From NCBI GenBank assembly GCA_964609775.1, contig CAZSSJ010000001.1:22858-86857 (forward strand): 64,000 nt of DNA. The letters run 5' to 3'. The notes under the pieces are model-generated. The model saw only the letters and a program-made list of their open reading frames with translations. It searched no databases and was not told where the DNA came from. This document shows positions 20,901 through 41,080 of the stretch, piece by piece. The DNA is from an uncultured Gammaproteobacteria bacterium. Its GTDB lineage: Bacteria > Patescibacteriota > Microgenomatia > JAMCZE01. Every line of letters begins with the position of its first letter. Position 1 is the first letter of the stretch. The position numbers were made by a program, and so were the translations under genes.

Positions 20901-21923
20901 ACGGTTGCTTATCAGACAAGCGGAATTGCGGATTTTGGGGAATGGATGAAAGTTTCTTCGGATTTGACTAATTTGTCTAATTGGACCAATTTGGTTTCTC
21001 CGGGGACGATTGTTTGTCAAAGCGCGGATGGGGTGGAGCCCTGCGAGGCGAGTGAGTCGGCGAGGATGGCGGGGGTGACTTCTGACACGACGGCGTTTTT
21101 GGGAGGAGAGGAGAAAGACGGAAGCGTGGTTGTCGGAATGTTGGGACAAATTCGAGTGAAGATCGCAACGGACTCAGCGCAAATTGAGCCGGGTGACGCG
21201 ATTGGGGTGGCGATCGCCGGTTTGGGAAAGAAAATTACGTCACGGGGATATGTGGTCGGCCGGGCGATGGAATCATGGTCCTCCGGACAAGAGAAAGTCT
21301 TAGTTTATGTCAACCCCGGTTACTTTGAGGGCCCCGAGTCGCAGCTGGCGTCGAAACTCTCGGTGGATGAGATTCAGGAACAGGTGGCGTCGATCAGTGC
21401 AAATTTGACTAATTTGTCTAATTGGTCCAATTTGAACAGCGACGAATTTGCGACGGTTTCGGGAAACCTGAAAGTTTTGGGAATGACGGAGCTTTCCAAC
21501 ACGACGATTGGCGGGTCGCTCACTGTGGGACTGGTCCATGTTGATGATTTGCTGGGCGATGTTTCCGGTTTGAATGGGAGTTTGAGTTTGCAAAACGGGA
21601 TGCTGACAATTAGTCAAATTGGACAAATTGGTCAAATTGGGGTTAACGGCGATTTGACAGTTTCCGGGGAGTTGACGGCGAAGAAGATTAACGTGCCGAC
21701 GGGAGTGGCTGGGGCCTCGGCGGGCAAGGCGACGATTCTTGCTGGACAAAGCGAAATTGAGATTACGACCAGCGCGCTTAGTGCTAATTCCTTGATTTTT
21801 GCGACACCGGAAGACGTGCCGGTGGCCGTCTCGACGACCAAGACAGCGACAGACAAGTTTAAGATCAAACTGGACTCCCCTGCGGGGGCAAACATCAAAA
21901 TTAATTGGTGGATAATCAATTAG
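5946..21923 (+). CDS. Giant (5325-aa precursor) repeat-rich putative surface/adhesin-like protein hosting six inteins. N-terminal MerR/excisionase-type HTH segment followed by a predicted TM helix; the body is made of about 50-aa repeats (GDLFTASSSGLNRFVITQNGNVGIGTT.P).
   Basis: One uninterrupted 15,978-nt frame; highly iterated Gly/Thr/Ser-rich repeat; intein blocks A (C[VI]TGDTLI), B (T.EHPYL), F/G (YD[IL].VENTHNF[VL]ANGIVAHN) six times; ends in TAG. Confidence 0.85.
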   Translation: MDRNKAKGKYKKLLKIGEAAAVLGVSIDTLRRWDQEGKLSSIKTPGGTRYYSLGDLRKINPEVGEIIKTEKQERAFDLTALSEEARREYLESPIGSRGGQLARPGQSKRISGVSYPSQVAKEAEAGLRARKLALGAALAAVVIGLVATGVVALRGTGLFRGDLVKTGSEREGAGEVLAITAGKSFLEIGAETVFKDRVDFGGSADGFSVFGGDTVSRRLTVTGADVALDQSLTASSSPTFASLKLSGTSDQIVVGGNGTLTWTPTAARTVTFPDATGTVVLDTATQTLSNKSLSGSSNTFTNIPNSALSNSKITINAGTNLGGGGDVSLGSSVTIDLDDAISLTSATFSGTLGVGGTASVGGQIILDGATAEINATNNRPLDLGFENTGAVRFLNSTNYVDSNNNLYINGVLVAGPTTQGYWQRNSGALAPTNITDSLVVGGTATASGKFQVYGLSALNPVASISGSSSKAAFIVDNTVGDLFTASSSGLNRFVITQNGNVGIGTSAPAYKLDVNGSTNIANGLTIAAGNLTLTGSQSIDATGILSIGTSNQTSLLIGRVGAPTTIYGSSVTISSSTFSSNAATISGTLGVGGEASFSAKIILDSPTSEINATNRRYLDLGFMNTGGVRFLNDTNYITPSGDLYLAGSLISSGTQAGFWQRPASTGALAPINITDSLLIGGTATSSAKFQVYGLSALNPVASISASSAVAGLMVDNTVGDLFTASSSGLNRFVITQNGNVGIGTTAPVGLLDVAATAPFVITSAGQVGIGTTSPVGLLHVQGACVTGDTLIRVRRRKKKKNGDWEDEWLDLPIKQLKAGDEVMTLDERTGEFTTSVVRELMDKGIKTTFKLMTADGKSIRTTAEHPYLVQESGSPDSNFLSGLTFASVKKISQDYYFTVLSGRKVAVKALDGEIVHFTSEGFSHITHEKKSEFEIMTRLFALSKVLTVLETGVKVSQKDRKIVNGKVNDYWTLEEVVEGVLTKVVVRSIEDGPKQFLSVVWKDKTPEATKNVGDVASRILQRRGRMVTSQRRAHEKFYTTILADLSRGVWGYRGISLAQDLVSKKKWVKVRFLKPGMEIATFGPDGRISWQKIESIEKVGEEQVYDIEVENTHNFVAGHYIDNTNQRALISQEGEILLRYLSFEQKEAEEQGDHDQSKTNLETIEKFCQVNHDFLLQLSKITADSRQIVAEPILPVNTQASLMAKSPKSSPAAKSINKEEKILRTETLIEESIEKVENLVNRYRKGEIRFGGIVAHNTTGKALVDLNYTGTDQAILTASVSGTTKFVINNSGQVGVGTGANNNTLLADVDLRTLTNTVPVASIAGSTGVAALVVDNVSGDLFTASSSGLSRFVIDRGGNVGISSTAPSQKLDVVGAVRLGANGGANDILNTTVGGSAPSGVLYWGNRTLCDTSGNCSGVGGIVAGSGVQYYISKWTDASGTTIGDSLLYDPGTSVGLNTTSPAAIFDIRGTQGTSALSGTLPVASISGKTSFAAVVVNNDSTVGDLFTASASGLSRFVITNTGNVGIGTALPAQLLSVAGAIQLGSGLGANDVLNTAAAGGVPSGLLYWGSREVCDASGNCAGVGGQVQGTGTQNYITKWNNAGGTAIGDSLLYDSGSAVGLGTTSPLGTLHVVGQCVVSGTRIRRRRRRRGYGARGAEEWVEEEVPIEEIEPDDEIVSLNVEKGRFEWHKVEKTLNKGLLAGMALSTSTGKRIVTTGKHPYLMIDKPEITQGTFEVDQSIKVEDLGKATIVGFALGKLAFAVKLRQQDKKLIRSGFQKAGKEDLFAPLTFANVVVNLFRAAQIYPARIALDEEYTGFFGEIKDIIKKSFPDAEVFETNLKDSSAAHQRVWAVNKGRAKEDVLLVLEGGELKERPGVKSTLSGRPLPLNGYRGTSQPIGLYYGEFYHRGANLSTPSTSSGLIARKTELSRARWAKAGDIRVGQYVATEDGFEKVTGISDAGRVLMYDLSVANTHNFLANGIVAHNTGTMAIATVSGATSFAALTVDNSGVGDLFTASSSGLNRFVITQNGNVGIGTTAPVGLLDVAATAPFVITSAGQVGIGTTSPVGLLHVQGACVTGDTLLKRRRKKWRTRRSAPTEMGPDPEGDAESTKKSAYADLVNQIGLLNGWLDTLTGNISDGDEIVKDQMGMDLPGVEPGRLGVSSQPSKPARPMPMNSIADDGDYYWEDVRIDEIEAGDEVMTLDEKSGEFVASTVKQLMVMGNKKIIKLTTESGKTIRTTEKHPYLVKVKGENQKTAFAFIDETGITLDPGQHHLGVGALNKKEDGALKDTFCQGGGKVFWRQVSTLKPGMLIATVDGFEKIIRIEELPEEMVYDIEVENTHNFVAGHYVDQASQTALKAEEEKFLCLYQQNTLTREFSLFDLTEENPSQKKGNKPQSNSYPGSDIKLIQSGDHMFSNSQSSNLMAIQLQSVAKMRFAVKAKMGLDEANDAKAPNMNPVDRFESIDETTLTWLGRILKENSINLTLDEALCLINKYESGEIVYGGIVAHNTTGKALANLNYTGTDQAIFTASQGGVLKFSLNGIGTEHTASVAGTTSKAALIVDNTIGDLFTASSSGLARFVITQSGNVGIGSAAPSVALDVTGAGKTSGAFTVGNNLTVTAGGLTVTAGNIALTGSQTIDGTGTLTIGGTSQTSLALGRSGAQTTISGGPVVVNGASFASAGTTTFTGGNVGIGTTTVTDFALEMGGSIGPVTTDQYDLGSAALEWNNLYVKNIISTGTTAGFWQRASGVLAPQNITDSLIIGGTATSSGKFQVYGLSALNPVASISGSSAVAALMVDNTVGDLFTASSSGLNRFVITQNGNVGIGSTVPVSRLDTGGGTISLNGGWLSNDGGAEGVFVKTDGNVGIGTSAPAYRLDVVHTTPTAANGSVSPDQIGLRVNRAHYVGTPGPYPNAVYGVLGQGQAGQGSASVSYSNTVGARGVAGQAIVNVTGGASVTGASSLYALNATITAGTLSNQYGLYVESLSGASNNYGVYVAGNNSSYFGGNVGIGTTSPVGLLHVQGACVTGDTLLKRRRKRKSKYGDWEEDYWEDIRIDEIEAGDEILTFDETTGGFTASQVRELMDMGKKTTFKLVTEGGKEIRTTANHPYLVKSANTSNFFNETFKVVAEIARAYYFATLTSWDPIAPALNNERISISEEGWHHLHHKARSRGEMLTRYFALPKAAALLASKEARVTYEPGGDGVSEFWSLYGTVDDVQVKVVVRSVNKGPKYFYSVIWKSEVKEDTKKRAASCLYPQCGGVITPQLFNERIIDQMSDFVKKRKRDYQLGSYLSGEDSTTKWVKVKQLKPGMEIATVGGDDQISWQKIKSIEKIGEEQVFDIEVENTHNFVANGIVAHNTTGKALANLNYTGTDQAIFTASQGGTLKFALNGTGTDFTASVAGTTSKAALIVDNTVGDLFTASSSGLNRFVITQNGNVGIGMATPSATLEVRKGPIPSTFDSSLALYSAGQFVNTNTNWYDTELNLLDTRDQAAGVGGRLAFGGVYRQVGTTNVTTFAAIGGYKENSTSGDYAGYLSFETRPNGGIFTEQMRVSSAGNVGIGTTSPVGLLHVQGACVTGDTLIRVRRRKKKKNGEWEDEWLDVPIKDIQAGDEVATLDEKTGEFIVSKVKQLMNMGRKVVFELLTESGKVVKTTENHPYLVDQSGKQMVSDLSAIQKETYEFAEKLGKKYYVNNLAGRKVKSRALGEFVEFSHSGWNHFVEKSHSINELITRFFALPRVVTVIRSSPHVTSYNIVEKKDMTIEYWELQEIIDHVLVKVLVCAVDGGPKFFLTCTWLGTKENEGVKPTKKELSLSPRSREMQDQLGRRRELVIPQLFSRVIIPKKVKWVKVKDLTVGVTIATKDGWEKVVSIKKLDEQQVYDIEVENTHNFVANGIVAHNTTGKALVDLNTTGDQAVFTASVSGTTKFVINNSGQVGVGTGANNNTLLADVDLRTLTNTVPVASISGSTGVAALVVDNVSGDVFTASTSGLSRFVIDKNGNVGIGSSAPGYKLDVSGTAHVTGAVTLDTALTVANGGTGAQTFTDNGVLFGNLTAAIGATAEGATGQCLIGNTGSAPSWSACTTASGQLWQEALGVVAPLNITDSLIIGKIATPSGAITSGSMQIYGVNNLTPVASISGVSAVAALIVDNTGGDVFTASTSGLTRFVIDKNGNVGIGTTSPDYPLVVVGTASDGTRTLEVKNSVAGSISNFQVTGDGVNARLMALSSSYSSSGAYAADTVVLDDDQGYAAGLTLLARNSSGYIRMFTGGFDDGNERLRINSTGNVGIGTTSPVGLLHVQGQCVIAGTKIKRRKKKEKRRKQDTAGTGPDPVGDWDYEDVPIEQIEPDDEILSLNQEKGQFEWHKVEQTMNKGLLPALALTTSTGKRIVTTAKHPYLAIDRPETTQGTFEVDQSIKIENLGAASIIGFALGKLAFAVKLPQKDKKIILARYQKKNQKDVFAHETFARCVVAAFKIARIYPARIALDEEYTSYFRRIESVIKESFPDSEIFQTNLKDGSAAHKKVWAVNRGILREDAVLSLESGELKERPGVKSTFRMPLPLVGYRGTSHPHGLYYGEFYSTERELSRAKWVKAAEVRKGMCVATEDGFEKVTGISDAGQVAMYDLQIANTHNFVANGIVAHNTTGKALVDLNTTGDQAVFTASVSGNTKFVINNSGQVGVGTGANNNTLLADVDLRTLTNTVPVASIAGSTGVAALVVDNTAGDLFTASSSGLSRFVIDKNGNVGIGTAAPTALVSLANSNYTTQNMLNVAGTSTGLTTGSLASFDWSPTDWSTSSGNLVNINLGSLADTTGNIFNISDDGSSIFSVSPQQIVNSLPTSFNAAGDVAIAYDINFTNPTASYIKSAAPMYLQAGELFNSSDLTLKTFNKGLIVLDPDEAVTIDGAASVSGQLMVGSTTAAPAQFGKFYVTDSNTATSSAFIENTNTAAAISGLVIKLGSTTLDTTSHFVNFLDLNGKMIGNIRAANTTTVAYQTSGIADFGEWMKVSSDLTNLSNWTNLVSPGTIVCQSADGVEPCEASESARMAGVTSDTTAFLGGEEKDGSVVVGMLGQIRVKIATDSAQIEPGDAIGVAIAGLGKKITSRGYVVGRAMESWSSGQEKVLVYVNPGYFEGPESQLASKLSVDEIQEQVASISANLTNLSNWSNLNSDEFATVSGNLKVLGMTELSNTTIGGSLTVGLVHVDDLLGDVSGLNGSLSLQNGMLTISQIGQIGQIGVNGDLTVSGELTAKKINVPTGVAGASAGKATILAGQSEIEITTSALSANSLIFATPEDVPVAVSTTKTATDKFKIKLDSPAGANIKINWWIIN
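8295..9716 (+). mobile_element. Intein 1 (474 aa) in the giant protein. It has a long internal uncharacterized domain and about 140 aa inserted between block F (NTHNFVAGHY) and the terminal GGIVAHN.
   Basis: Starts with Cys of ...HVQGA|CVTGDTLIRVRRRKKKK, contains TTAEHPYLV, ends ...GGIVAHN|TTGKAL. Frame verified against the host ORF. Confidence 0.8.
10854..11900 (+). mobile_element. Intein 2 (349 aa); second subfamily (CVVSGTRI...EWHKVE...; internal domain with IYPARIALDEEYT)
   Basis: ...HVVGQ|CVVSGTRIRRRRRRRG...GKHPYLM...YDLSVANTHNFLANGIVAHN|TG. Confidence 0.8.
12171..13475 (+). mobile_element. Intein 3 (435 aa); same subfamily as intein 1, including the insertion before GGIVAHN.
   Basis: ...HVQGA|CVTGDTLLKRRRKKW...TEKHPYLV...YDIEVENTHNFVAGHYVD...YGGIVAHN|TTGKAL. 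Confidence 0.8.
15021..16022 (+). mobile_element. Intein 4 (334 aa)
   Basis: ...HVQGA|CVTGDTLLKRRRKRKSKYGDWEED...TANHPYLV...FDIEVENTHNFVANGIVAHN|TTGKAL. Confidence 0.85.
16671..17642 (+). mobile_element. Intein 5 (324 aa)
   Basis: ...HVQGA|CVTGDTLIRVRRRKKKKNGEWEDEW...TENHPYLV...YDIEVENTHNFVANGIVAHN|TTGKAL. Confidence 0.85.
18846..19865 (+). mobile_element. Intein 6 (340 aa); same subfamily as intein 2.
   Basis: ...HVQGQ|CVIAGTKIKRRKKKEKRRK...AKHPYLA...YDLQIANTHNFVANGIVAHN|TTGKAL. Confidence 0.8.
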
Positions 21924-27900: not shown

Positions 27901-28067
27901 CGACAACCACATTGTATGTAGGCCAACTCAATGACGCTTCTAACCAGTTTACAGGCCAGGCAGATGATATAAAAATATGGGCATATTCTTTGACTGCTTA
28001 CCAGGTGCGGATGGAGTTTAACCAAAGCAGTGCTGTTAGGTTTGGGCCTAGTTCCGGGGCTCCCTGA
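21972..28067 (+). CDS. DUF2341-domain protein with an N-terminal signal anchor, a long Gly-rich low-complexity region and multiple concanavalin-A-like/LamG (Laminin_G_3-type) domains. The ORF is open from GTG at 21951; ATG at 21972 is the likely start.
   Basis: N-terminal W.YR..I......DYQV.V......D.RFTD..G..LSYW.E......WV.IP.L.....IYMYYGN (DUF2341 signature). Repeated ...DGSWHHV...GSLDEVRIYNR.LS..E... modules, each preceded by WK.DEG.G lectin-type motifs. Confidence 0.75.
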   Translation: MKQIRRIRLIGLIRPIWAKKLGIFLLSATIIVAGLLVFWVNRNGGKVEAAWFDDSWGYRQIITLTNNGSTQTDYQVQVVVGTGDLIAAGKMQSDCNDLRFTDLSGKVLSYWTEYCRSGAGKNSSVWVTIPTLTTTPAPIYMYYGNPSAATASTFRSLPTGINLGDGADGAATVSGTVNFNSTTISGRTEADGVNPASTVLTALGSTTITATAAAGLSVGDEVLIINLQGTTSDYGNVGKYETARVTAINGAVLTLNHPLVNAYDGTTQKIMVQRVPNYSSVTVCTGSADPVAGCASAGTLNPASWSSGNGTGGVVMLRATGTVNVAASGSISGAGLGYAGGAGGPAGAKGGYGGDSYDGDNPRGGCADSSCTAGVGGGKSGSATGASPNSGGTRGGGGGGGSDGATNGTGGGAAGGGGGYGGGGGGGGANGDGYVALPSTANGGTGGSGGSTGTSAGGGGGGCRDNDGDNTAGANGGNAGSAGSNGSASCSGTAGTGGEVGSGATSGSGGGGAGGGLGSGGGGGGGGTYGTAALTTIFLGSGGGGGGGTTAGVDFAGAAGAAGGGIVYISAGTVTVAGAASANGADGTTPDAQTGSGGAGAGGSVFISGATVTLGSSLVSATGGAAGAADQAIAGSGGGGVGRIAVNYSTSTGSTNPSAGSTSTLPVAGSPSTEEKGNGPVAFWHLDDGQGTVAQDSTTNGNAGTLSGTTLPSWQTEDLCVSGKCLYFNGITSNVTAGTVNAVQTVSFWVRPASVSASLVQLASGVDVKAASGVVGTDGFTAPTIYVNGAKVTGSSATPFAASQWNFVTVTTGTGITANAITLGKMQTGVLNGFLDEVKLYHYARSAAQVKADYANSGINKGTGSVLGADPDQVNRTLSNGLVGYWKMDESGAGSCTGGANDSCDSSGNGNDGNWVNQAANTGGKFGNGVIFDGVNDTVDVAQSSSLNGVTDDITVSAWIKTTATGGGLTDNTFISKETAGCGSGYSDWFIHLLNGTVKFWTSGSECTAVASNATVNDGSWHLVTVTRKRSDGNHIIYIDGQYDTSKIGNTGSIGNAEDLYFGTINGTASDYTGSLDEVRIYNRVLSPAEVSILYQFAAGPVGYWKMEEGAGTTAADSSGNGYTTAAFTGNTAWTAGKFGKGLTFDGDGDYASITDASGVKIDLGATTDSYTVSGWAKTSTDGSGNATIVEKNDGSGAYPFSLYLNSSEHACFQISDGTNAPSACGSTALSDGAWHYLTGVRDVGADKVYIYVDGVQINSATDSTTATAANGDDTSIGNGGTSYTTNDFTGQIDEVRIYNYSRSPKQIIEDLNVGHPTGGSPIGTAHGYWKFDDGRGTTAYDSGASPNNGVLTSMNLVTSVGISGWNPNGKFNKALSFDGSNDNVDFGDLSYTEGASSLSWSFWVNPNSVAATKCLWCKYNNAATERSWAIESGTTNASAIRATLPTSTTEADGTTYGETPTGQLSVGVWTHVAVVYDGNASGNLNRLKIYINGVKQNLAFAGTIPATTQATTSTANAGESSDGARNFSGTLDEMKIYGGALTEAEVKLDYNRGSAISLGVLGTSTADGKTASSSAGSAYCLPGDTTTCNPPVAEWPYEEGQGTSVADTSGNNNTMTLSAASQWTHGVIGRGITFNGTSDTADYGDVNNKFDSVTKLTVTAWFKKPSVGGKVYIATKGSGANATRFELSALTDGLIYFVVRNGVLSTASTYSNDTNWHHVALVFDGTQTGNANRLKGFIDGTARALTFSNTVPSSTGNYGTAKLYSGYHEWFNLYSAGYVDQMRVFDYPLTAAQVANNYNRGLPASWWKFDECQGTVANDSIATISGTLNGGTPGDCNTASTAWANGKTGKFNYSLKFGTTPDLTTVTSTSTYPFSQVSSPPVSWGGWFYPTSSVNSQAFIDKKDQFRLYTDGSGNAICGVATAAGSYTDASSVTAPITLNTWNHVLCTYDGTTSLKTYVNGILKNTSTISVDMFLTTTTLYVGQLNDASNQFTGQADDIKIWAYSLTAYQVRMEFNQSSAVRFGPSSGAP

Positions 28068-28104
28068 CCATAGTGAAAGCGAGCTTTGGTTGCGGTCCTC
28101 GCAC

Positions 28105-28201
28105 GCTCGACAGCTGAGGGTGAATGTTGTTTTCAGCTCGCGGCTGCGGGCCTAAACCAAGGAAGCGCAGTTAGATTTGGACCCAATACGGGGGCGCCTT
28201 A
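28105..28201 (+). pseudogene. Orphan 3'-terminal remnant duplicating the last ~30 codons of the upstream LamG gene (…ECCFQLAAAGLNQGSAVRFGPNTGAP*)
   Basis: Translation in frame gives NQGSAVRFGPNTGAP-stop, against NQSSAVRFGPSSGAP-stop at 28020..28067. Confidence 0.6.
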
Positions 28202-29320
28202 AGTTAGAAATTCAGAAAAGTTTTCTTTGGTGACCGGGGTCCAGGTGGAGTTAGGATAGGTTTGACGCCAGGTCACTGGAGGAGAGTTTCTGCTCTTTTG
28301 CCATTTGATTTCAAAGGCGTTAAGAGTTCCTTGGGATTCTTCAATATAGTCGATTTCTTGTTTAGACCAGGTTCTCCAGAAATAAGTGTTTGGGGTTAAA
28401 CCGAGATTGCCGTTTCTTTTGAATCTTTCGGTGATAAGGAAATTTTCCCAGAGGGCGCCAGTATCGGAGCGCAGTGCAAGAGGGTTAAAGTTGTTGATGA
28501 TTGCATTTCTGATGCCGGTGTCCCAGAAGTATATCTTCCGAGATTTGTTAATTTCTTTTCTTAGGTTCCTTGAGAGTGGAGGAAGACGGAATATCACAAA
28601 AGCCAACTCAAGAAGTCTCGTGTAGGAAGAGATAGTTTCCTTGTCTACCTCGAGAAGGTTGGCCAGCTCGGTGAAATGGACCTCGCTGCCAATTTGGAGA
28701 GCGAGGGCTTGCAGAAGCTTTTCTAAAAGCTCTGGTGCTTTTAGTTGACGGTATTCTAAGGAATCTTTATAAAGGTAGTTTTTGTAGATCGATTTGATGG
28801 TTTCCTCGGCGGACTGCCCTCCCAGGCTGACAATTTCCGGGTAGGAACCATAGATCATTCTTGTTTCTAGAAGTCTAGCTGTTTCGATTTGGTCAGGATA
28901 GATTTCGGCCAGTGAGAGCGGGCTGAGGATAAACTCATAAGTGCGGCCGGTTAAGGGCTCCTTAATTTTATTGGAAAGATCGAAAGAGCTGCTACCCGTG
29001 GCAATTACTTGCAGCTTGGGGGCGTTATCGACAAGGAGTTTGAGGGTTAGTCCGATGTTTAGCACTCTTTGGGCTTCGTCGATGATGACGAGTTTGTTTT
29101 TGCCGATTAAGCTTTTGAGTTCAGAGGAGGTTTTGTCCGTGAGAGCTCTTCTTACATCTGGTTCGTCACAGTTTAAATAAGAACTTTCTTCGGGGAATTT
29201 CTTCTTAATCTCTTGGACTAGAGTGGTTTTGCCCACCCGTCGCGGGCCGTAAATTATGATTACCTTTCCTCTAAAGAGGTGGTCTTCAATTCGTGGCTGG
29301 ATTGATCTCTTAAATAGCAT
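28199..29320 (-). CDS. AAA+ ATPase of the AAA_14 + DUF4143 family
   Basis: Walker A GPRRVGKTTL and Walker B VIIDEAQ; 373 aa; own TTGACA-17-TAGTAAT promoter and AGGAGA RBS upstream (about 29330..29370). Confidence 0.8.
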   Translation of the reverse strand: MLFKRSIQPRIEDHLFRGKVIIIYGPRRVGKTTLVQEIKKKFPEESSYLNCDEPDVRRALTDKTSSELKSLIGKNKLVIIDEAQRVLNIGLTLKLLVDNAPKLQVIATGSSSFDLSNKIKEPLTGRTYEFILSPLSLAEIYPDQIETARLLETRMIYGSYPEIVSLGGQSAEETIKSIYKNYLYKDSLEYRQLKAPELLEKLLQALALQIGSEVHFTELANLLEVDKETISSYTRLLELAFVIFRLPPLSRNLRKEINKSRKIYFWDTGIRNAIINNFNPLALRSDTGALWENFLITERFKRNGNLGLTPNTYFWRTWSKQEIDYIEESQGTLNAFEIKWQKSRNSPPVTWRQTYPNSTWTPVTKENFSEFLT

Positions 29321-29424
29321 GATTTCGGTGGTTTTACTCTCCTAAATTACTATAATTTAGGCGGTTTGTCAAGGACCAAGAAAGTCTCGCCTTGGTCCTG
29401 CTCCAGAGGTGAAGGTGTGGAACT

Positions 29425-29508
29425 ATGCCTTGACCCCATATCAAGTGAGGACTGAATATAACCAATCGGGTGCAGTGAGATTTGGCCCAACAACTGGTGC
29501 TCCCTAGA
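29425..29508 (+). pseudogene. Second orphan 3' remnant of a LamG-type gene (VWNYALTPYQVRTEYNQSGAVRFGPTTGAP*)
   Basis: In-frame translation matches the C-terminus …IKIWAYSLTAYQVRMEFNQSSAVRFGPSSGAP* of the 21972..28067 product. Confidence 0.6.
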
Positions 29509-29618
29509 TTGTTGGGATGCCTTTCCTGAGGGGTGGTCTCGGGAAGAAATTTTTCTCTCTTGACAGGGCTAGTTGGGCCTGTCATTCTTAATTAAATAAG
29601 CAGCCTGGAGTTGTTCTC

Positions 29619-32600
29619 TTGAAAAAACATCTAAGCTTAATCATCTTCTTTGTCTTCATCTTTTCAGGCTTTTTCGTGTTTGCGCCGGCGCCGCTTTGGG
29701 CTTCCGGGGCGACCTATTATGTGGCGACTTCCGGCAGTGACACTAATTCCGGCACGCAAAGTGCGCCCTGGGCCACGCTCCAAAAAGCCCTCGGGAGCAT
29801 TTCCTCCGGCGACATGGTCATCATCCGCGGAGGCATCTATCGTCAGCCCGGCAGCATGATTGGCTACCCCTACAAATCCTTCGGCCCAGCCGGAACGGCG
29901 GGCAATTTGACCACCTTCAAATCTTATCCCGGAGAACGAGTTATCATCACCGGTCCAAACAACGACCTTATCCAAATTGCCGTTGCCGACTATGTTCGGA
30001 TTGACAGCCTCTGGTTTGGCGGGGATTATGTCACCGGTATCAAAGGTCCGGTGTTTCAAATTTCCGGCGTCGGCAAAGAAATTGTCAACAACACCTTTTT
30101 CAATTGGCCCTCGGGCCCGCTGATGGGTTGGGGAGAAAACGTCCTTTTTCAAGGAAATCGGCTCGTCAACACCGGCCGGGATGTGCACACCGCGGGAACC
30201 TATTTCTCTTCGGGATATGCGACTGACGGAAAGTTGTCTAATCACATCATTGCTGACCACAACATCTACATTGGCAACAACATTTCCGCCGGTTATGGCT
30301 TCCAGTTTTGGCATGGCGGCAAGTCCATGATCGCGACCCGAAACTTTGTGGCCGGTCATTCCTGGGGGAGCGCCATAGACGGAGACAGCCAGCTGTGGGC
30401 TAATAATTTTTATTGGAAGCAAACCGGAAAAGATTCAGACATTGACACCGTCATTAATCCCTATGGTCCTCTGTCCGGTGGTTCTAATCAAAAGTATATC
30501 AATAATATCTTTGGGCCCTCCGCCTGGTTTTATTATGCTAACGCCTGGAAAGCCACTCAGGCAGAAATCGATACCAAACTATCTAATAATGCTTTCACTG
30601 ACGATCCCTCCTATCTGCCGGGATCCGGTGGTCCCACCTGTAAAAAGCCCTGCGGAGTAAGTCCATACGTCTTTCATCAAGGGCAAGAAAGTGCGGAAAT
30701 TGGTATCAGTGCGGCAGCTCTGGATAAGGCAGTTGGGACAATCAGTCAGGCTTTTCTAAACCCGCTGGACACTATCTATAGCGACACCACGGTTGAATCA
30801 AGTTTTCAACAGATTCGCTCGGCGCAAGTTCCAACCACGAGCCCCCTATACCGTAAAGGACTGCCTTGGTTCGGACAAGCCATCGACATTGGCTGGAACG
30901 TTCCGGCGCCAGCCTCCGTTTGCGACTATTGGGCCGCTTTCACCAAGCTTGGTCTCAAGCACTATGATAAATACGGTAGTGTTCTTCCTGACTATTCCTG
31001 CACTAGTCCTACACCACCTCCGCCGCCACCGCCACCACCGCCGCCGTCGACAGTGACGGGCGACGTTAATGGTGACGGCAAGGTTGATTTTGCCGACCTC
31101 CAAGCCCTGCTCTTAAACATCCTGGGGACAGTCACGGCGCAACTTGATCTCATTGTCGATGGCAAAATTAATTCGTTGGACTTTGCCGTTTCCTCGGGAG
31201 AAATCATTAATGCTAATCCGCCGCCGCCCGGCGACACTCAAGCTCCAGTCACTGTCATCACCGCGCCAGCTGGTGGTCAAACGGTCAGTGGGACTTTTTC
31301 CGTCGTGGCGAGCGCGACGGATAACGTCGGGGTGACAAAAGTGGAGTTCTATATTGACGGGGCGATTAAAAACACTGACACGGGTGTTCCCTACGGATTT
31401 AATCTGGACACGACCCAACTGACTAATGCCGCGCACACGGTTTATTCCAAGGCCTATGACGCTGCCGGCAACGTAGGGAGCTCATCAAGCATCACTTTCA
31501 CGGTCAGCAACACCGCCCCGCCGCCCCAAACCATGACTTTGAATTTGTCCTCGTATTTTGGCGGCTCGGGTGAAGACAGTGCTCGCGACGTGGTCACCGA
31601 TTCCCAAGGCAATGCCTACGTGGTGGGCGGCCTGGGATCAGCAACGATCCAGACAACCCAAACTTTTAAAAAAACCGGTACCTGCGCTGTTTCCTGGACG
31701 GGTAACGGCGGCAAGGACATGGACGCCTATGTCATGAAAATCAGCCCGACTAACCAGCTTGTCTGGTCAACCAGGATCGGCGGGCCGTGCTATGACCGGT
31801 CGTATGGCGTGGAGCTCGATTCCTCGGGAAACATCTACTTGACCGGCCGGGCCGGGCCGAATTTCCCCACGACCAGCGGGACTTTCCAGCCGGGTTTCTA
31901 CGGCTTTAATTCCGGCAGCGCCTATGGTGAGCAGAACGCTTTTGTGGCCAAAGTTTCCCCAACGGGAGCTCTTGTTTGGGCGAGCTACGTCGGCTCGACA
32001 GACGGCAACCGGGACATCGCCGTTGACGGCAGTGGGGATGTCTATATTGGCACCGGCTTTAATTCGGCGACGCAAAAGCCACTAAGCGGGCTTGCCTGGT
32101 TTAGCTCGGCCATTAGCAAGGCTTTTCAAGTGGTGAACAATCGCGGTTTTGAGGGCTTGATTGTCAAAATTAAGTCTGACGGGTCGCAGGTGGTGTGGGC
32201 CAGTTTCTACGGCGGCACGGGTAATGAGGGAGCCACGCCGTCAATCAGAGTGGATAGGAACGGCTACGTTTATTACCTCACCAACACAACTTCGACTAAT
32301 CTGCCCGTAAAAAACGCTTTCAAATCGACTCTCGGGGGGACGATCGACATGGCCCTCGTTAAATTCCATTTTGACTCGGGGGTGGGGAAACTGGTCACCG
32401 ACTATTCGACCTATTTTGGCGGCAGTGATGTCGAGTTTACCGAAACCCACGGTCTGGCCGTGGACGTATCGGGAAACGCCTATATAGCCGCGACCACCAA
32501 ATCTACGAACCTGACGACGACCACGGGGGCTTACCAACGAACCTATGGCGGCTCAGGGGGAAGCGGAAACTATCCGGGGGACGGCTTTGTGGCGAAATTT

Positions 32601-32993
32601 TCCCCCACGGGGACACTTCTTTCGGCCACCTATCTGGGGGGGTCCTCAGGGGAGGGCCTGGAGGGCACGGCCCTTGATTCTTCGGGTAATGTCTTTGTCT
32701 CGGGGGCGACCTATTCAACAAACTTCCCGACGAGTTCCGGAGCCTTTCAAACAAGTAATAAGGGCAGAGCTGACGTTTTTGCGGCGAAACTTTCGCCGGA
32801 TCTCAAAAGTCTTCTTTTCAGCACCTACCTGGGCGGCACGGGCGATGACCTGGGTCGGTCAGCAACGGTCGATTCTGCGGGCAACTTCCTGGTGGTGGGA
32901 CTCGAATATTCTTCCAATTTGCCGACGAAAAGTGCTTTCCAGATAACCTATGGGGGAGCCGGGGATGAGTTAATTTCTAAATTTGGTCCTTAA
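29619..32993 (+). CDS. Secreted multidomain protein (TTG start): signal peptide; right-handed parallel beta-helix (pectate-lyase-like) domain; poly-Pro linker; dockerin-like repeat (GDVNGDGKVDFADL...DGKINSLDFA); bacterial Ig-like domain; C-terminal SBBP beta-propeller repeats.
   Basis: MKKHLSLIIFFVFIFSGFFVFAPAPLWASG; beta-helix NxxGxxxxG repeats; PPPPPPPPPPPPS; dockerin Ca-binding loop motif; repeated D.SGN.Y..G.T.S.N.PT..GA.Q units. Confidence 0.75.
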   Translation: MKKHLSLIIFFVFIFSGFFVFAPAPLWASGATYYVATSGSDTNSGTQSAPWATLQKALGSISSGDMVIIRGGIYRQPGSMIGYPYKSFGPAGTAGNLTTFKSYPGERVIITGPNNDLIQIAVADYVRIDSLWFGGDYVTGIKGPVFQISGVGKEIVNNTFFNWPSGPLMGWGENVLFQGNRLVNTGRDVHTAGTYFSSGYATDGKLSNHIIADHNIYIGNNISAGYGFQFWHGGKSMIATRNFVAGHSWGSAIDGDSQLWANNFYWKQTGKDSDIDTVINPYGPLSGGSNQKYINNIFGPSAWFYYANAWKATQAEIDTKLSNNAFTDDPSYLPGSGGPTCKKPCGVSPYVFHQGQESAEIGISAAALDKAVGTISQAFLNPLDTIYSDTTVESSFQQIRSAQVPTTSPLYRKGLPWFGQAIDIGWNVPAPASVCDYWAAFTKLGLKHYDKYGSVLPDYSCTSPTPPPPPPPPPPPSTVTGDVNGDGKVDFADLQALLLNILGTVTAQLDLIVDGKINSLDFAVSSGEIINANPPPPGDTQAPVTVITAPAGGQTVSGTFSVVASATDNVGVTKVEFYIDGAIKNTDTGVPYGFNLDTTQLTNAAHTVYSKAYDAAGNVGSSSSITFTVSNTAPPPQTMTLNLSSYFGGSGEDSARDVVTDSQGNAYVVGGLGSATIQTTQTFKKTGTCAVSWTGNGGKDMDAYVMKISPTNQLVWSTRIGGPCYDRSYGVELDSSGNIYLTGRAGPNFPTTSGTFQPGFYGFNSGSAYGEQNAFVAKVSPTGALVWASYVGSTDGNRDIAVDGSGDVYIGTGFNSATQKPLSGLAWFSSAISKAFQVVNNRGFEGLIVKIKSDGSQVVWASFYGGTGNEGATPSIRVDRNGYVYYLTNTTSTNLPVKNAFKSTLGGTIDMALVKFHFDSGVGKLVTDYSTYFGGSDVEFTETHGLAVDVSGNAYIAATTKSTNLTTTTGAYQRTYGGSGGSGNYPGDGFVAKFSPTGTLLSATYLGGSSGEGLEGTALDSSGNVFVSGATYSTNFPTSSGAFQTSNKGRADVFAAKLSPDLKSLLFSTYLGGTGDDLGRSATVDSAGNFLVVGLEYSSNLPTKSAFQITYGGAGDELISKFGP

Positions 32994-32997
32994 ATCT

Positions 32998-34257
32998 ATG
33001 ATAAATTTAACTATGCCACAAATGCCAGAGCGCTTTTCCAGGTCCGGAGTTATTCCGATTAAACTTGTTATTCTCCTTTTATTGCTGGCGCTGCCGCTGC
33101 TGCTTCTGGCGTTGAACTCGAAGACGAATCTTTTAGGCCTGGCTGGAGCTTCGGCCAACCTGGCAGTCTATCCGGCCACCCAAGCTAATGTGGTCGTCGG
33201 GGACCCCGTCTCTTTCACTGTTTCGCTGACGACCGGTGGGGCCAGCGTCCGGGGAGCGGACGTGATCATTAACTACGACAAGACAAAGTTGGCTCTGGTG
33301 GACATTACGCCCAATGACGCTTCCTTTAAAACCTTTGGCCCGCAAACCGCCGGGGGAGTCTTCGATGCTTCTCGGGTTATCAGTGTGGCCAGTCAAAGCG
33401 GCCGGATTGAGTTTAGCTCTTTGGCCTTTGATCCGTCGCAATCAGGTAACGGTCAGCAAGGCTTGACGGCGCTTTTTAACGGCACGACGACGCTAGTCAA
33501 TCTCAAGTTCCTGGCGCTCTCCGCCGGCAGCAATATTCCCCTGACTTTTGGCTACACCGCCAGCAGCACGACCGATTCGAATGTGGCTCTGGACGGCGGC
33601 CAGGACGTCTTGGGCTCGGTCACAAACGCCGCGATTACGATTGTCAATCCCACGGTCCAAGATAGCCAGGCTCCAACAACAGCGGTGACGACGCCAACGG
33701 CCGACCAAACAGTGGCCGGGACGGTGATCCTTGCCGCCACAGCCACAGACAACGTGGGGGTGACAAAAGTGGAGTTTGTCCTGGACGGAGCGGTCAGGGG
33801 TTCGGACACCACTTCTCCCTACACTCTTTCCTGGGACTCAAAGACGGTTTCGGACGGCAGCCACTCCGTCCTGACCAAAGCCTATGACGCGGCCGGCAAT
33901 GTGGGCACTTCGCCAGCTATTAGCTTTAAAGTGGTTAACACGGTTGTGAGCAAGACGATGAGAGTGAGCCAGATTGTTTATGAAGTCCGCGGCCAAAAGC
34001 TTGATGATGGGGTTCTGGTTGTCGATGCGGCCGGCAAGGGGCTGGGCGGAGCCCTGGTTTCCCGAACGGTGACTAACGAGGCCCAGACTCTGACCTATAA
34101 ACTCTCTTCCAAAACGGCGACTAACGGTTGGACCGGCTCAACCATCACCAAAAAAGCCGCCCCGGGGTGCTATTCGGAGAAAATCACCGCCGTCACTCTC
34201 TCCGGCTACACCTTTGATGGTGTTACTCCGCAAAACCAATATTGCACCAAGAGGTAG
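32998..34257 (+). CDS. Cohesin-domain protein with an Ig-like domain. N-terminal TM/signal anchor. The ORF is open from 32983.
   Basis: LAVYPATQANVVVGDPVSFTVSLTTGGASVRGADVIINYDKTKLALVDI (cohesin-type pattern); the Ig-like segment TATDNVGVTKVEF.LDGA...DT..PY is shared with the upstream dockerin protein. Confidence 0.6.
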   Translation: MINLTMPQMPERFSRSGVIPIKLVILLLLLALPLLLLALNSKTNLLGLAGASANLAVYPATQANVVVGDPVSFTVSLTTGGASVRGADVIINYDKTKLALVDITPNDASFKTFGPQTAGGVFDASRVISVASQSGRIEFSSLAFDPSQSGNGQQGLTALFNGTTTLVNLKFLALSAGSNIPLTFGYTASSTTDSNVALDGGQDVLGSVTNAAITIVNPTVQDSQAPTTAVTTPTADQTVAGTVILAATATDNVGVTKVEFVLDGAVRGSDTTSPYTLSWDSKTVSDGSHSVLTKAYDAAGNVGTSPAISFKVVNTVVSKTMRVSQIVYEVRGQKLDDGVLVVDAAGKGLGGALVSRTVTNEAQTLTYKLSSKTATNGWTGSTITKKAAPGCYSEKITAVTLSGYTFDGVTPQNQYCTKR

Positions 34258-34273
34258 AAAGTTAGCCTATGAT

Positions 34274-36073
34274 ATGAGGCAAGAGAGAGCCTTTAGAAAG
34301 AGATTGTTTTGGAGGCGGGGTTTGACTTCAGTTCTGGCGCCGGTGGCTCTTTTTTTGGTTTTGATTCTGGGAGTGGTGGCGATTAATTTCGGGCTGAATT
34401 CATCAACGAGTCCGGAGCCACGAGCCGACGGAGGGACAAATGTCGTTGTGACCGGAACAGTGCAGCGGTCGCCATGGCTGCGGCTGCGGAAACCGGACTA
34501 TCGGCTGGTCAAGACGGATAATGGCAAGGACTACTATTTGACCACGACCAGCACGGGAATTAATCTCCGGACCTATGAGGGGAAAAAAGTCGTTGTGACA
34601 GGGACGGAGACAACGACGGCTAAGTGGGGGCTGACGCTGTTTGTCAAGGACATTAAGGTGTTTGTGGCCCCGCCGCCACCATATCCGGCGCAGAAGAAGG
34701 TGGACACCTCAAAGACGGTGATGTATCAAGTGTGGTTGAATTATTACGCCCAGAATGTCTCCGAGGATCAGCCGTCGATGGTGGTGTTTGAGAATGCGGC
34801 CCGGAGGTTGCCGGACCTGGCGAAGATGGGCGTGACCACAATTCAGCTTTCGCCGGTGCACCCGTTTTTGTCAGGGACGACCATTGGGTCGCCATATGGT
34901 TCACGGGACTACTATGACGTCAATCCGGGTTATGCCGGGTTCACAAATCCACAAACCGATCCGGGAACGAAAAGTGAGCGGATCGCCGCCTTTAAAAAAT
35001 ATGTTGAGGCGGCCCACGGTCAGGGGATGAAGGTGATCATGGACTGTGTCTATCACAGCACCGATGCCCGCAATGTTCTGGTGGCGGCGTATCCGGAATA
35101 TTACAAACATAATGCCGACGGCCGTTTTGTCCAGAATCAATACGGGTTTTATGTTTTGGACTACGCTCAATCCGAGCTTGTCGACTATATGATTTCGATG
35201 GTGAAATACTGGAAACAGACGGTGGGAGTGGACGGGTGTCGGGCGGACGTGGCGACGATGGTGCCGCTTGCTTTCTGGGCAGCCTTAAATAACGAGATGA
35301 AAAAGATTGATCCCGGGTGGCTCATGATTGCGGAAACGACAGCAAATCTGGTTTCGTATAGCGGGCCGTACAGCGGTCCGGGATATAAGGGGGAAACGTA
35401 TGACAAGATCTATGGTTTTGACGGGATATATGGGGTGACTTATATGCTGGCTTCACGGGCGATTCTTAACGGAAGTCGCATGGCTGATGTCCTGGAGACG
35501 GCCTGGGAGTTTCCGCAAAACGGCACGGCAGCGGTTCCGGGAGGAATTTTTTACCGGTCGGTGGACAATCATGATCAGCGGCCAAGAGCAACGCTTCTGG
35601 CTGGAGGGAATGCCGGGATGGTGGCTTCGGTGGCGGTCAACTTGACGCTTGACGGGATTCCGTTTATTTTTAATGGCCAGGAGATCGGGGATGTGGCGCC
35701 GACGAGCATTGCGGTTCAAAGATTTATTTCCTGGAGTCATCCGCTTGCACCCCAGAATGGAGAGGCTTTTGAGAAACTGATTTCACTTCGACGAAATCGT
35801 CCGGCTTTAAACAGCGGGACGACAGTTTGGCTTGATAATTCAAATCCGGCAGGAGTTGTGTCGTATGTCAGGCAGAGCGGGAGTGACCGGGTGTTGGTGG
35901 TGGCGAATCTTTCGGGGACAGACTGGAGCGGAACGGTGAGCGGAACAACGGGAGCAAGCCTTAGTGGCCAGGGAAAAGATCTCATCTCCGGTCTGAGCGT
36001 GTCTTCGGCGGTTAACAACGTGATGACGCTTTCACTCCCGGCCTATTCTTATGTTGTTATCCAAATTCAGTAG
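34274..36073 (+). CDS. GH13 alpha-amylase-family glycoside hydrolase, membrane-anchored or secreted. The ORF is open from TTG at 34214; ATG at 34274 lies after the upstream stop.
   Basis: GH13 conserved regions: QLSPVHPF...GYAGF, KVIMDCVYHST, GVDGCRADVA (catalytic Asp), FNGQEIG, VDNHDQ. Confidence 0.8.
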   Translation: MRQERAFRKRLFWRRGLTSVLAPVALFLVLILGVVAINFGLNSSTSPEPRADGGTNVVVTGTVQRSPWLRLRKPDYRLVKTDNGKDYYLTTTSTGINLRTYEGKKVVVTGTETTTAKWGLTLFVKDIKVFVAPPPPYPAQKKVDTSKTVMYQVWLNYYAQNVSEDQPSMVVFENAARRLPDLAKMGVTTIQLSPVHPFLSGTTIGSPYGSRDYYDVNPGYAGFTNPQTDPGTKSERIAAFKKYVEAAHGQGMKVIMDCVYHSTDARNVLVAAYPEYYKHNADGRFVQNQYGFYVLDYAQSELVDYMISMVKYWKQTVGVDGCRADVATMVPLAFWAALNNEMKKIDPGWLMIAETTANLVSYSGPYSGPGYKGETYDKIYGFDGIYGVTYMLASRAILNGSRMADVLETAWEFPQNGTAAVPGGIFYRSVDNHDQRPRATLLAGGNAGMVASVAVNLTLDGIPFIFNGQEIGDVAPTSIAVQRFISWSHPLAPQNGEAFEKLISLRRNRPALNSGTTVWLDNSNPAGVVSYVRQSGSDRVLVVANLSGTDWSGTVSGTTGASLSGQGKDLISGLSVSSAVNNVMTLSLPAYSYVVIQIQ

Positions 36074-36357: not shown

Positions 36358-37566
36358 ATGCAAGCCTTAATTGAAACCTACCATCGTTTACTTTCGGAAA
36401 TAGTACCGTCCTACTGGCGCCGGTTCTATGACGAGTTTGTCATGGATAGCCGGATGGTCGGCATTGTTGGGGCAAGAGGGGTGGGAAAGACCACGTTTCT
36501 TGTTAGCTATCTGCGGGAACACTACGGCGGTTCGGACAGGTCACTCTACGTCTCGGCGGACAACCTCTATTTTGTGGAGCATACTTTGATTGAAGTGGCG
36601 GATCAATTTGTCAAGGACTTCGCCGGGGAGATTTTGTGCATTGACGAGATTCACCGCTATAGGAATTGGAATCAGGAACTGAAAAATATTTACGACTCCT
36701 ACCCTAAACTGTCAGTAATATTTTCAGGGAGTTCGAGTGTTGATCTGGTGAAAGGGAAGTATGATCTATCCCGCCGGGCTAACTTGAAAACGATGTATGG
36801 CTTTTCCTTCCGGGAATATCTGGAGGTTTGGGAGAAAGCTAAATACCCGATTCTGACGCTGGCGGAAATTCGCACTAATCACACGATGTATGCTCAGGAA
36901 TTAATGAAGACGCCAAAAATCCTTGGTTATCTGAAACAGTATCTTAAGGGAGGTTACTACCCGACGTTTTTGGAAATGGGGAGCTACGGCGCCTATCAAA
37001 GCAGCCTGCGGGGGATTATTGACAAGATTATCTTTGAAGATATCAGTAGTTTTTATTCTTTAAATACCTCTAATTTGGACACTCTTAAGAAGATAATTTA
37101 TTTCTTTGGGACTGCCCAGCCCGGGACTGTTAACATCAACCGCCTGGCCGGAAGTTTAAAGAAGGACTATACCACAATTGCGGAGTATGTGCAGATTTTA
37201 AGAGATACCGGACTTCTTCGTTTTCTCCGGCGGAACAAACAAGGCCATGCTTTAGTGCGGGATGCAGAAAAGATTTATCTGGACAATCCGAATCTCCTTT
37301 ACGCTGTTAATCAGGAGGTAGGGAAGGAGCCACTGGTTGGAGTTTCGCGGGAGCTCTTTGTGATTGGCAGTTTGGAAAACGCAGACTACCACGTGTTTTT
37401 TTCTGAGGCGGCGGACGTTGAATGCGACGGGCACCTTTTTGAGATTGGGGGGAAGAACAAAACCGCCTCGCAGTTGAAAGGGAAAGAAGGATATTTAATT
37501 AGTGATGATGTCCTTGTTGGCGACTCCAGAACCATTCCCCTTTATTTGTTTGGGTTTTTGTCTTAA
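36358..37566 (+). CDS. AAA+ ATPase, AAA_14 + DUF4143 family (second, divergent copy)
   Basis: GARGVGKTTFL Walker A, ILCIDEIH Walker B; sigma70-like promoter TTGACT-17-TAATAT at about 36310..36340. Confidence 0.8.
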   Translation: MQALIETYHRLLSEIVPSYWRRFYDEFVMDSRMVGIVGARGVGKTTFLVSYLREHYGGSDRSLYVSADNLYFVEHTLIEVADQFVKDFAGEILCIDEIHRYRNWNQELKNIYDSYPKLSVIFSGSSSVDLVKGKYDLSRRANLKTMYGFSFREYLEVWEKAKYPILTLAEIRTNHTMYAQELMKTPKILGYLKQYLKGGYYPTFLEMGSYGAYQSSLRGIIDKIIFEDISSFYSLNTSNLDTLKKIIYFFGTAQPGTVNINRLAGSLKKDYTTIAEYVQILRDTGLLRFLRRNKQGHALVRDAEKIYLDNPNLLYAVNQEVGKEPLVGVSRELFVIGSLENADYHVFFSEAADVECDGHLFEIGGKNKTASQLKGKEGYLISDDVLVGDSRTIPLYLFGFLS

Positions 37567-37635
37567 TCGGTGGTTGATTTTTCAACTGGGGGTTTTTGTT
37601 TGGCCTCGAAAGATGAGGATTGGGAAATGAAAATG

Positions 37636-37666: not shown

Positions 37667-37736
37667 AAAAATGCAAGATACAGAGTGGGGAAGTTGAGGA
37701 AAAAATTACCTTGTTGGCACTAGTGTGCAAGTTGGG

Positions 37737-41074: not shown

Positions 41075-41080
41075 AGAGAC

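Follow-up and report, generated by a model that had tools for sequence, protein, structure and literature searches.

We identified, in a 64,000-nucleotide stretch of contig CAZSSJ010000001.1 (the window), a giant LamG surface-protein gene whose 3' end is present three times, with an ATPase gene of the AAA_14 and DUF4143 families lying between the second and third copies. The window belongs to a genome of Candidatus Gottesmanbacteria (Microgenomates, within the candidate phyla radiation, CPR), an ultra-small groundwater bacterium. The three tails probably mark a hotspot of insertion and 3'-end replacement at LamG gene ends. The initial annotation of this DNA, which had suggested insertion or repeated 3'-end replacement, was right in outline, and the locus does not look like plain decay; elsewhere, short orphan copies of the tail bracket small genes of mobile type. 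The triple tail itself is genuine. Among 23 contigs that carry the ATPase, it lies between the LamG gene and the downstream gene in 8 of the 8 loci displayed (ENA, NCBI, JGI, and Logan), and the locus is no assembly artefact.

The LamG protein contains five or more stretches matching Laminin_G_3 (PF13385; 367 bits, over the cut-off) and is thus a multidomain member of that family. Its open reading frame (ORF) of 2038 amino acids (aa) ends in ...YQVRMEFNQSSAVRFGPSSGAP-stop, with ...AVRFGPSSGAP-stop as the last residues. A six-frame motif scan of the 64 kb revealed exactly three tails, all on the plus strand and sharing one reading frame. Searching with degenerate codons for AVRFGPxxG[AS]P-stop (GCNGTNMGNTTYGGNCCN7GGNKCNCCNTRR) gave three exact matches, at 28032-28067, 28167-28202, and 29472-29507, and none in 100 dinucleotide-preserving shuffles when two mismatches were allowed. 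These matches bear out the initial annotation, which had described the tail as present three times, after small corrections to its coordinates. For copy 2, placed at 28105-28201, the tail was correct and the start was not, with homology only from 28155 (N-Q-G-S-A-V-R-F-G-P-N-T-G-A-P-stop); for copy 3, placed at 29425-29508, the tail again stood, and homology begins already at 29394 and ends at 29507. That copies 2 and 3 bracket a minus-strand DUF4143 ATPase gene was likewise confirmed by the Pfam matches to AAA_14 and DUF4143. Copy 2 is in the same frame as the LamG gene, with three stop codons in between, and its stop (TAA) overlaps the ATPase stop codon by 2 nucleotides (nt).

The window copies did not arise by recent duplication. 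Copies 1 and 3 are 61% identical in nucleotides over 114 nt; the figures are 73% for copies 1 and 2 and 69% for copies 2 and 3, each over 48 nt, and the longest identical runs between copies are 6-8 nt. Copies 1 and 3 differ at 44 positions, most of which (26) are third codon positions. The proportions of synonymous (pS) and nonsynonymous (pN) differences, from Nei-Gojobori-type counts, were pS 0.80 and pN 0.12 for copies 1 and 2, and pS 0.80 and pN 0.22 for copies 1 and 3. Third-codon identity of the window pairs (0.25-0.33) equals the between-genome background of tails (0.31), and the synonymous sites are saturated. This saturation together with a preserved peptide implies that at least two of the three copies evolved as the ends of working genes, and since the synonymous divergence is as large as that between genera, at least two came from other LamG genes or lineages and not from copying in place. 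Since a dead remnant with this much drift would no longer encode the peptide, at least two copies were the ends of working genes for nearly all of the time over which they diverged, and they became orphans, or arrived, comparatively recently. The target-site-like duplication suggested by the initial annotation did not survive the alignment of the three copies: a transposon target-site duplication is excluded by repeats of 48-114 nt with 61-73% identity, identical runs of 8 nt at most, and saturated synonymous sites. A diversity-generating retroelement is also ruled out, because all four bases have undergone substitution, mostly at codon position 3, and the window ORFs scanned contain no reverse transcriptase.

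Similar arrangements recur in other genomes. Pattern scans of public genome and metagenome contigs, whose loci bear L numbers here, returned 24 DNA stretches with one genome per species and 56 more from metagenome contigs. Read in context, the matches were LamG-type gene ends or orphan copies, except L032, a chance match in a high-GC genome that was left out, and L049, a metagenome locus that the protein-level scan had missed. We also left out L014, whose two 100% identical tails (7183-7373) lie across a run of N and are probably a scaffolding artefact. A fuzzy protein-level scan yielded ~20 nonredundant arrays of two to six same-strand tails behind LamG genes of Microgenomates, the largest being L039 with six tails. 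In length the orphans amount to only 12-38 codons, and their left boundaries vary between ~8 and ~40 codons. These 5' boundaries form a short class that starts from N[EQ]G.AVRFGP, as in copy 2, and a long class that starts from GQIDDV[RK]IYNYALT, as in copy 3; these two starts are the most conserved codon blocks of the tail. The third codon positions of the tail are free, and no conservation is present past the stop codon. Moreover, the junction GCTGCGGGCCTAAACCAAGG of the window (28143-28162, 20 nt) has an identical copy in L034, an unrelated metagenome contig that holds a counterpart of the whole unit of spacer and copy 2. In L039, an NYN gene is flanked by tails 1 and 2, which make up a direct repeat of 113 nt with a mosaic structure: the two are nearly identical in the 3' 70 nt, and in the 5' 40 nt they differ chiefly at third positions of codons, as would be expected from a crossover or conversion tract. 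We found no description of the arrangement in the literature on LamG in CPR, Patescibacteria integrons, GIY-YIG or toxin-antitoxin hotspots, and DUF4143; it is apparently a recurrent cassette hotspot at a conserved Microgenomates gene end that has so far gone undescribed.

Several other features were considered at these loci. Phage delivery was rejected with 0 tail matches in viral contigs. A junction hairpin is not general, since the hairpin scan found a stem of at least 8 bp at only 7 of 36 orphan junctions, and no Rfam family matched the tails or junctions. In the window, the region of spacer and copy 2 has no stable fold (28050-28215, z = -0.5 versus shuffles) and no Rfam match, and a 9-bp hairpin at 29372-29399 extends with its second arm into copy 3. 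Two observations concern the source assemblies. L010, L012, L021-L025, L027, and L031 are metagenome-assembled genomes titled "uncultured Gammaproteobacteria" or "Pseudomonadales" (TPA_asm) that carry a tail otherwise found in Microgenomates, and their labels may be wrong. In L004/L090 (GCA_001003415.1), the LamG gene appears as three ORFs (575, 788, and 647 aa) versus one ORF of ~2000 aa in other assemblies, from frameshifts or assembly errors.

The genes held between tails were assigned to families by Pfam scans and are listed with the window features in Table 1. Inter-tail spacing is 0.1-1.5 kb, with one or two genes, and 37 of the 41 cargo ORFs of 70 aa or more have the same orientation as the LamG gene, the window ATPase being the sole solid exception. 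Of 53 last or single tails, which have no further tail behind them, ~25 are also followed by the same cargo families immediately past the stop codon; one of these loci is L020, whose gene end most resembles that of the window. Further sequences recur. A family of ~140-150 aa with a weak LPD3 match only is present in two arrays (L009 1293-1709 and L039 8537-8992), and a 167-aa family without Pfam match recurs in L062, L037, and L070. A conserved FYYM[ST]TKKDRVLC.YLRADWLRLVDILPDLS translation stands just before long-class orphans at L039 7363-7527 and L062 7398-7637, and also in L037, L063, and L074; this stretch represents either a small ORF or the conserved end of a cassette.

Table 1 Features of the window locus and cargo families of the tail arrays
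Feature	Position or loci	Strand	Remark	Basis
LamG surface-protein gene, 2038 aa	21951-28067	+	N-terminal membrane anchor	ORF list; Pfam Laminin_G_3 E=8e-111, DUF2341
Tail copy 1, GQADDIKIWAYSLTAYQVRMEFNQSSAVRFGPSSGAP-stop	27954-28067	+	True gene end; block homologous to copy 3	Translation, six-frame scan, codon pattern
87-nt spacer	28068-28154	+	With copy 2, small "empty" cassette	Alignment, motif search
Tail copy 2, NQGSAVRFGPNTGAP-stop	28155-28202	+	Short-class orphan	Translation, six-frame scan, codon pattern
AAA_14 + DUF4143 ATPase	28199-29320	-	Cargo gene	Pfam DUF4143 E=2e-40, AAA_14 E=1e-31
Region 5' of ATPase gene	29321-29393		Junction to copy 3; holds first arm and loop of 9-bp hairpin	
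Tail copy 3, GPAPEVKVWNYALTPYQVRTEYNQSGAVRFGPTTGAP-stop	29394-29507	+	Long-class orphan	blastp 65% over 37 aa; codon pattern
Terminator-like hairpin, then T run	29522-29556	+	15 nt past copy 3	Terminator scan
Cell-surface protein gene (beta-helix, dockerin, Big_7, SBBP)	29619-32993	+	Next resident gene; distal edge of insertion site	Pfam, gene order
GIY-YIG nucleases	L009, L018, L019, L035, L036, L039, L072		Between tails	Pfam
IS200-like Y1 transposases	L015, L055		Between tails	Pfam
HigB(Gp49)/helix-turn-helix (HTH) pairs	L015, L019, L043; L009, L025		Between tails in the first three; just past last detected tail in L009 and L025	Pfam
HicA/HicB pairs	L025, L039		Between tails	Pfam
DUF433/DUF5615	L040, L085		Between tails	Pfam
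ParE-like	L046		Between tails	Pfam
NYN	L039 (three copies), L077		Between tails	Pfam
23S-rRNA-IVS four-helix-bundle proteins	L039, L080; L012/L062, L018		Between tails in L039 and L080; directly past last tail in L012/L062 and L018	Pfam
AAA_14 + DUF4143 ATPases	L043, L083, window		Between tails	Pfam

An all-against-all comparison of the arrays revealed cassettes common to several of them. Cassette 2 of L039, a GIY-YIG gene with its leader, is 95% identical to L080 over 294 nt, and the match sets in precisely at the stop codon that closes the preceding tail, the tails themselves being only ~70% identical. Cassette 5 of L039 and cassette 1 of L062 share 77% identity over 721 nt, with both flanking tails included. 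The HigBA cassettes of L015, L025, and L043 are 70-73% identical, and the 23S_IVP and DUF433/DUF5615 cassettes are likewise common to several arrays. The same cassettes at different positions in different arrays therefore argue for a mobile cassette pool and not for local gene decay. A search for presence/absence polymorphism among near-identical contigs (L039/L037/L081 and L062/L063/L074/L012) returned only indels of 44-124 nt.

The initial annotation had named the condition under which the remnants would be ordinary decay, namely tandem paralogues with no evidence of insertion, and the short orphans and the cassettes common to different arrays speak against it. On this account, the orphans are the last remnants of deleted tandem LamG paralogues and the intervening genes are unrelated neighbours. 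Tandem full-length LamG genes, each with a tail, do exist (L013, L045, L051, L071, and L086), as do a few degenerate tails (L056 1140-1248; L039 near 7480 and 11450). However, orphans are always short and have no LamG sequence 5' of them, their boundaries cluster at two conserved blocks, and most of those detected retain an intact frame and stop, a nucleotide-profile search having found few degenerate copies. Moreover, the spacers of 0.1-1.5 kb hold the same few mobile-type families, identical cassettes occupy different positions in different arrays, and pN lies well below pS, which indicates that the orphans have not been drifting for long as pseudogenes. We consider simple decay very improbable.

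The GIY-YIG cassettes retain only 27 nt of tail (FGP..GSP-stop), and their genes read into this residual tail (...RFLLLTGFGP..GSP-stop) through one junction, CTACTGTTAACGGGC joined to TTTGGCCC, in L018, L035, and L019; a variant is present in L072 and a related fusion (...RFLQCSGFGP...) in L036. At the junction of gene and tail in L018 (minus strand, ~4182-4209) there is a perfect 28-bp palindrome, CTGTTAACGGGC-TTTG-GCCCGTTAACAG, in which the left arm corresponds, as reverse complement, to the tail codons for G-P-L-T; L035, L019, and L072 retain this left arm even at sites where their tail mismatches it. An element resembling repetitive extragenic palindromes (REP), GTCATYCTGGA-short hairpin-GATAGRATC, was observed at L019 889-930, L039 4137-4190 and 4495-4540, L080 (minus strand, 613), and L079 2904; its stem sequence varies with base-pairing kept, and it has no Rfam match. 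It was rejected as a tail-linked feature, as it stands beside some GIY-YIG genes but also elsewhere.

A fixed junction in several arrays is what one would look for in a dedicated, integron-like site-specific system, in which a recombinase or nuclease acting in trans would read the tail DNA at codon positions 1 and 2 and both insert and excise circular [cargo + tail] cassettes in a single orientation. A tail remnant of 27 nt is too short for homologous recombination, and the L039/L080 identity begins exactly at a stop codon. The cassettes are also short, tightly packed, and co-oriented (37/41), with no terminators between them (0/41 and 1/28). Chromosomal integrons carry toxin-antitoxin and defence cargo, which the cargo here resembles. 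However, no integrase lies beside any array examined or in the window, the tail forms no attC-like hairpin (stems of at least 8 bp at 7/36; z = -0.5), wobble positions are free with no conservation past the stop codon, and the left boundaries of orphans are not fixed but range from ~8 to ~40 codons. On balance, such a dedicated system seems unlikely. Taken to its full extent, it would be an undescribed Microgenomates cassette-capture system, integron-like, with the LamG tail as attachment site and a trans factor that is possibly the GIY-YIG or Y1-transposase cargo itself, directing insertion and excision of [cargo + tail] units and building toxin-antitoxin and defence gene banks transcribed by LamG read-through; we put this forward tentatively and regard it as doubtful.

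The ATPase is one cargo among several. It matches AAA_14 with 110 bits (cut-off 27) and DUF4143 with 139 bits (cut-off 28.1), with the domains in this order, as in AAA_14 + DUF4143 proteins (COG1373). It also matches the PADLOC defence-candidate family PDC-S01 over its full length (E=2e-149), and by this family match it is a candidate defence protein. The promoter of its own with which the initial annotation had credited the gene was not recovered, as a consensus scan of 29321-29408 on the minus strand found no promoter-like site. In CPR the family gives at least 8000 matches. The closest relatives on long contigs, 67-70% identical and from three other genomes, lie in unrelated contexts. A flank-versus-flank protein comparison, which recovered the window tails as a positive control, found no duplicated gene ends around these three relatives or around the second ATPase of the window. 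This second AAA_14/DUF4143-like gene, at 36358-37566, is 28% identical to the first and opens an islet (36358-43400) that also holds two AbiEii genes (37737-38414 and 39317-39991), a PIN gene (40655-41074), and a DUF6036 nucleotidyltransferase, and looks like a defence or toxin-antitoxin region.

DUF4143 has been classed in the PD-(D/E)XK nuclease superfamily (PMC3424549). The ATPase, as such a nuclease fused to an ATPase, might be a homing-type mobile gene that cut the tail DNA and made the duplication on insertion. In CPR genomes its family is very large and has a patchy distribution, and members are tail-flanked in three arrays (window, L043, and L083). However, these three are mutually only 27-42% identical, most arrays hold no ATPase, and neither the three closest long-contig homologues nor the second copy in the window shows duplication in its flanks. 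We therefore assign the duplication to the LamG tail site and not to the ATPase, and an ATPase-specific duplication was rejected on these four loci. The initial annotation, which had the ATPase inserting at a LamG 3' end, holds for the ATPase as inserted cargo and fails for the ATPase as the agent of duplication. We judge the homing explanation very improbable.

The peptide shared by the tails occurs strictly at the C terminus, and its conservation far exceeds that of the remaining protein, two homologues being 42-60% identical overall. AVRFGP.[ST]G[AS]P ends 56 nonredundant gene ends in the DNA scans, and a HMMER search with the last 37 residues returned 1691 cluster representatives, with the motif terminal in 95 of the best 150. 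Sister families stop earlier, at ...AVRF, ...AVRFGP, or ...THFK. Judging from related families that end at ...AVRF or ...THFK, AVRF may simply form the final structural strand, with GP.[ST]G[AS]P as an additional cap. The initial annotation had raised the possibility that the motif is an unrecognised C-terminal sorting or processing signal, which may be the case. Among known sorting signals, LPXTG, PEP-CTERM, GlyGly-CTERM, and similar ones were not found: the motif is the literal C terminus, with no hydrophobic anchor after it. No NCBIfam or Pfam sorting model matched, and the last 355 aa gave only a weak match to the NCBIfam model TafC. An AlphaFold model of the last 222 aa had a mean predicted local distance difference test (pLDDT) score of 54 and was uninformative at the tail, with residues 211-222 below 50.

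This uniformity bears on whether the orphans could be functional, silent cassettes that switch the LamG C terminus in the manner of pilS or orphan toxin modules. They are promoterless, 5'-truncated, and oriented as the expressed gene, as such cassettes would be. However, they encode the most conserved part only, with no variable domain, so that a switch would change almost nothing, and we find this explanation extremely improbable. The functional alternative 3' cassettes of the initial annotation are unlikely too, because the orphans all encode one and the same conserved peptide without variety.

We return to the insertion hotspot as the probable explanation and propose how it might work. The giant LamG gene family of Microgenomates, which ends in the conserved ...N[QE]G.AVRFGP.[ST]G[AS]P-stop, would serve as a landing site, directly behind which small and usually co-oriented cassettes of selfish or defence type would accumulate. 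Many cassettes have at their distal end a tail copy that is truncated at its 5' end and has no promoter, and the LamG frame stays whole because a complete tail is always present at the gene end. In the window, two cassettes can be delineated in this way: 28068-28202, consisting of the 87-nt spacer and the short tail, and ~28199-29507, consisting of the minus-strand ATPase and the long tail. Cassettes would enter by recombination between the tail on incoming DNA and the resident tail, which may be homology-driven or catalysed in trans by a nuclease or recombinase. Homology-driven entry is possible given the clustering of orphan boundaries at two conserved blocks and the presence of genes for ComEA/ComEC and RuvABC in the genome. 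The window holds ComEA (SLBB+HHH_3) and ComEC (60005-62037) and a RuvC-RuvA-RuvB cluster (44578-46763); competence and retained homologous recombination have been reported for Patescibacteria (PMC12455944). The strong bias in orientation and the short tail of 27 nt left in the GIY-YIG cassettes would point to site-directed activity in trans, and the L039 mosaic and the Com and Ruv proteins would fit homology-driven capture.

Several points weigh against this explanation. Empty-site alleles, which the initial annotation had thought worth looking for, were absent, as 18 of 18 contigs with an identical downstream gene also carry the ATPase; therefore, we infer mobility at the window locus from other loci. 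Pfam scans found no recombinase, integrase, transposase, or reverse transcriptase among the window ORFs. With tails 61-73% identical and identical runs of 8 nt at most, RecA-type recombination would be very inefficient. Some cassettes have no second tail, so tail duplication is not obligatory and several mechanisms may act. At least one orphan tail was present at 11 of the 38 nonredundant gene ends for which 1.5 kb or more of downstream sequence was available, a frequency that, like the intactness of the orphans, is biased upward because the loci were found through the motif itself. Lastly, any of the three copies may be ancestral. Among the three window tails, only copy 3 has a terminator-like site behind it, and 0 of 41 single tails elsewhere carry one; a terminator after the last tail was accordingly dropped as a marker of the ancestral end and kept as a weak hint.

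The neighbours of the locus have their own peculiarities. Directly 5' of the LamG gene, a 5325-aa ORF (5946-21923, plus strand) has an N-terminal MerR-type HTH and Hint/intein-splicing domains (precomputed Pfam), a combination that is odd for a giant protein. Downstream, 29619-36073 encodes surface proteins with dockerin, cohesin, Big_7, SBBP, and pectate-lyase-like beta-helix domains, followed by an alpha-amylase, that is, cellulosome-like parts in a CPR bacterium.

The genomes of CPR bacteria are tiny and contain few recognisable mobile elements, and the routes by which these bacteria gain accessory and defence genes are poorly understood. If the hotspot is real, a conserved gene end would collect small cassettes repeatedly across genera with the host gene intact, offering a simple route of gene flow in CPR, and the tail pattern would be a ready marker for variable gene banks in metagenomes. 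For annotation, short "tail" ORFs and GIY-YIG proteins ending in ...FGP..GSP are junction products and not independent genes. The extreme conservation of AVRFGP.[ST]G[AS]P in many giant surface proteins is a question in its own right.

Comparing the arrays with known systems, we found partial likeness to several of them. Integrons and integrase-less arrays (CALINs) consist of short, co-oriented, packed cassettes, each followed by a repeat; they are rich in toxin-antitoxin and defence genes, and cassettes are exchanged among them. Similarly, the cassettes here are short, co-oriented (37/41), and close-packed (0.1-1.5 kb), with the window ATPase reversed. However, the repeat is a coding gene end whose extent varies between cassettes. 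Neither IntI nor attI has a counterpart, as no recombinase was found in the window ORFs (Pfam) or seen among the inspected ORFs around arrays, and attC has none in the fold of 28050-28215, in the few stems at junctions, or in the free third positions. The pdif (XerC/D) sites of Acinetobacter plasmids are 28-bp imperfect palindromes, often in alternating orientation. Their modules are likewise small, are often toxin-antitoxin pairs, and are bounded by a short site with the recombinase encoded elsewhere, but no such palindrome is present in the tail.

Other systems share the use of a gene end. Tn7 inserts at attTn7, at the 3' end of glmS, bringing TnsABCD and not duplicating the gene end. As here, a conserved coding end provides a safe landing site, with wobble tolerated and insertion just past the stop in one orientation; the difference is that the gene end is duplicated in the LamG arrays. 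Orphan modules of CdiA/Rhs carry a toxin and immunity, and pilS silent cassettes carry antigenic variants. These too are promoterless, 5'-truncated copies of a gene end 3' of the full gene, with short homology allowing recombination, whereas the orphans here are the invariant end only, with neither a variable domain nor an immunity gene. Genomic islands reportedly stand in tandem at the 3' ends of tRNA and tmRNA genes, as Williams is said to have described in 2002. There, the sites lie in RNA genes, and the repeats are exact and are produced by integrases that the islands carry. In both cases a conserved gene end is a repeated landing site and partial 3' copies delimit successive inserts; however, the site here is the coding tail of a protein gene, with conservation only in the first and second codon positions.

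The closest parallel in form may be the prophage e14 in Escherichia coli, which carries its own integrase and a defined att core. It is a 15-kb prophage that excises as a unit (PMC13626634). According to the passage of PMC13626634 that cites Hill et al. 1989, e14 leaves an icdC fragment at icd, and the two ends differ by several synonymous changes and two amino-acid substitutions only. For e14 and phage 21 at icd, as in the window, the insert lies inside the 3' end of a conserved gene and a substitute end keeps that gene intact. Likewise, the displaced end remains as a promoterless fragment beyond the insert, as copies 2 and 3 do beyond the intact 2038-aa ORF. However, the inserts here are 0.1-1.5 kb long, up to six tails stand in a row, the cargo is heterogeneous, and no integrase is present in cis, the ATPase being the sole gene between the window tails. 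As to an identical core at both junctions, the longest identical runs between copies are 6-8 nt, which is short but not impossible for the overlap region of a tyrosine recombinase. Overall, the window locus resembles a miniature, multi-cassette version of the e14/icd arrangement, with a mechanism that we infer.

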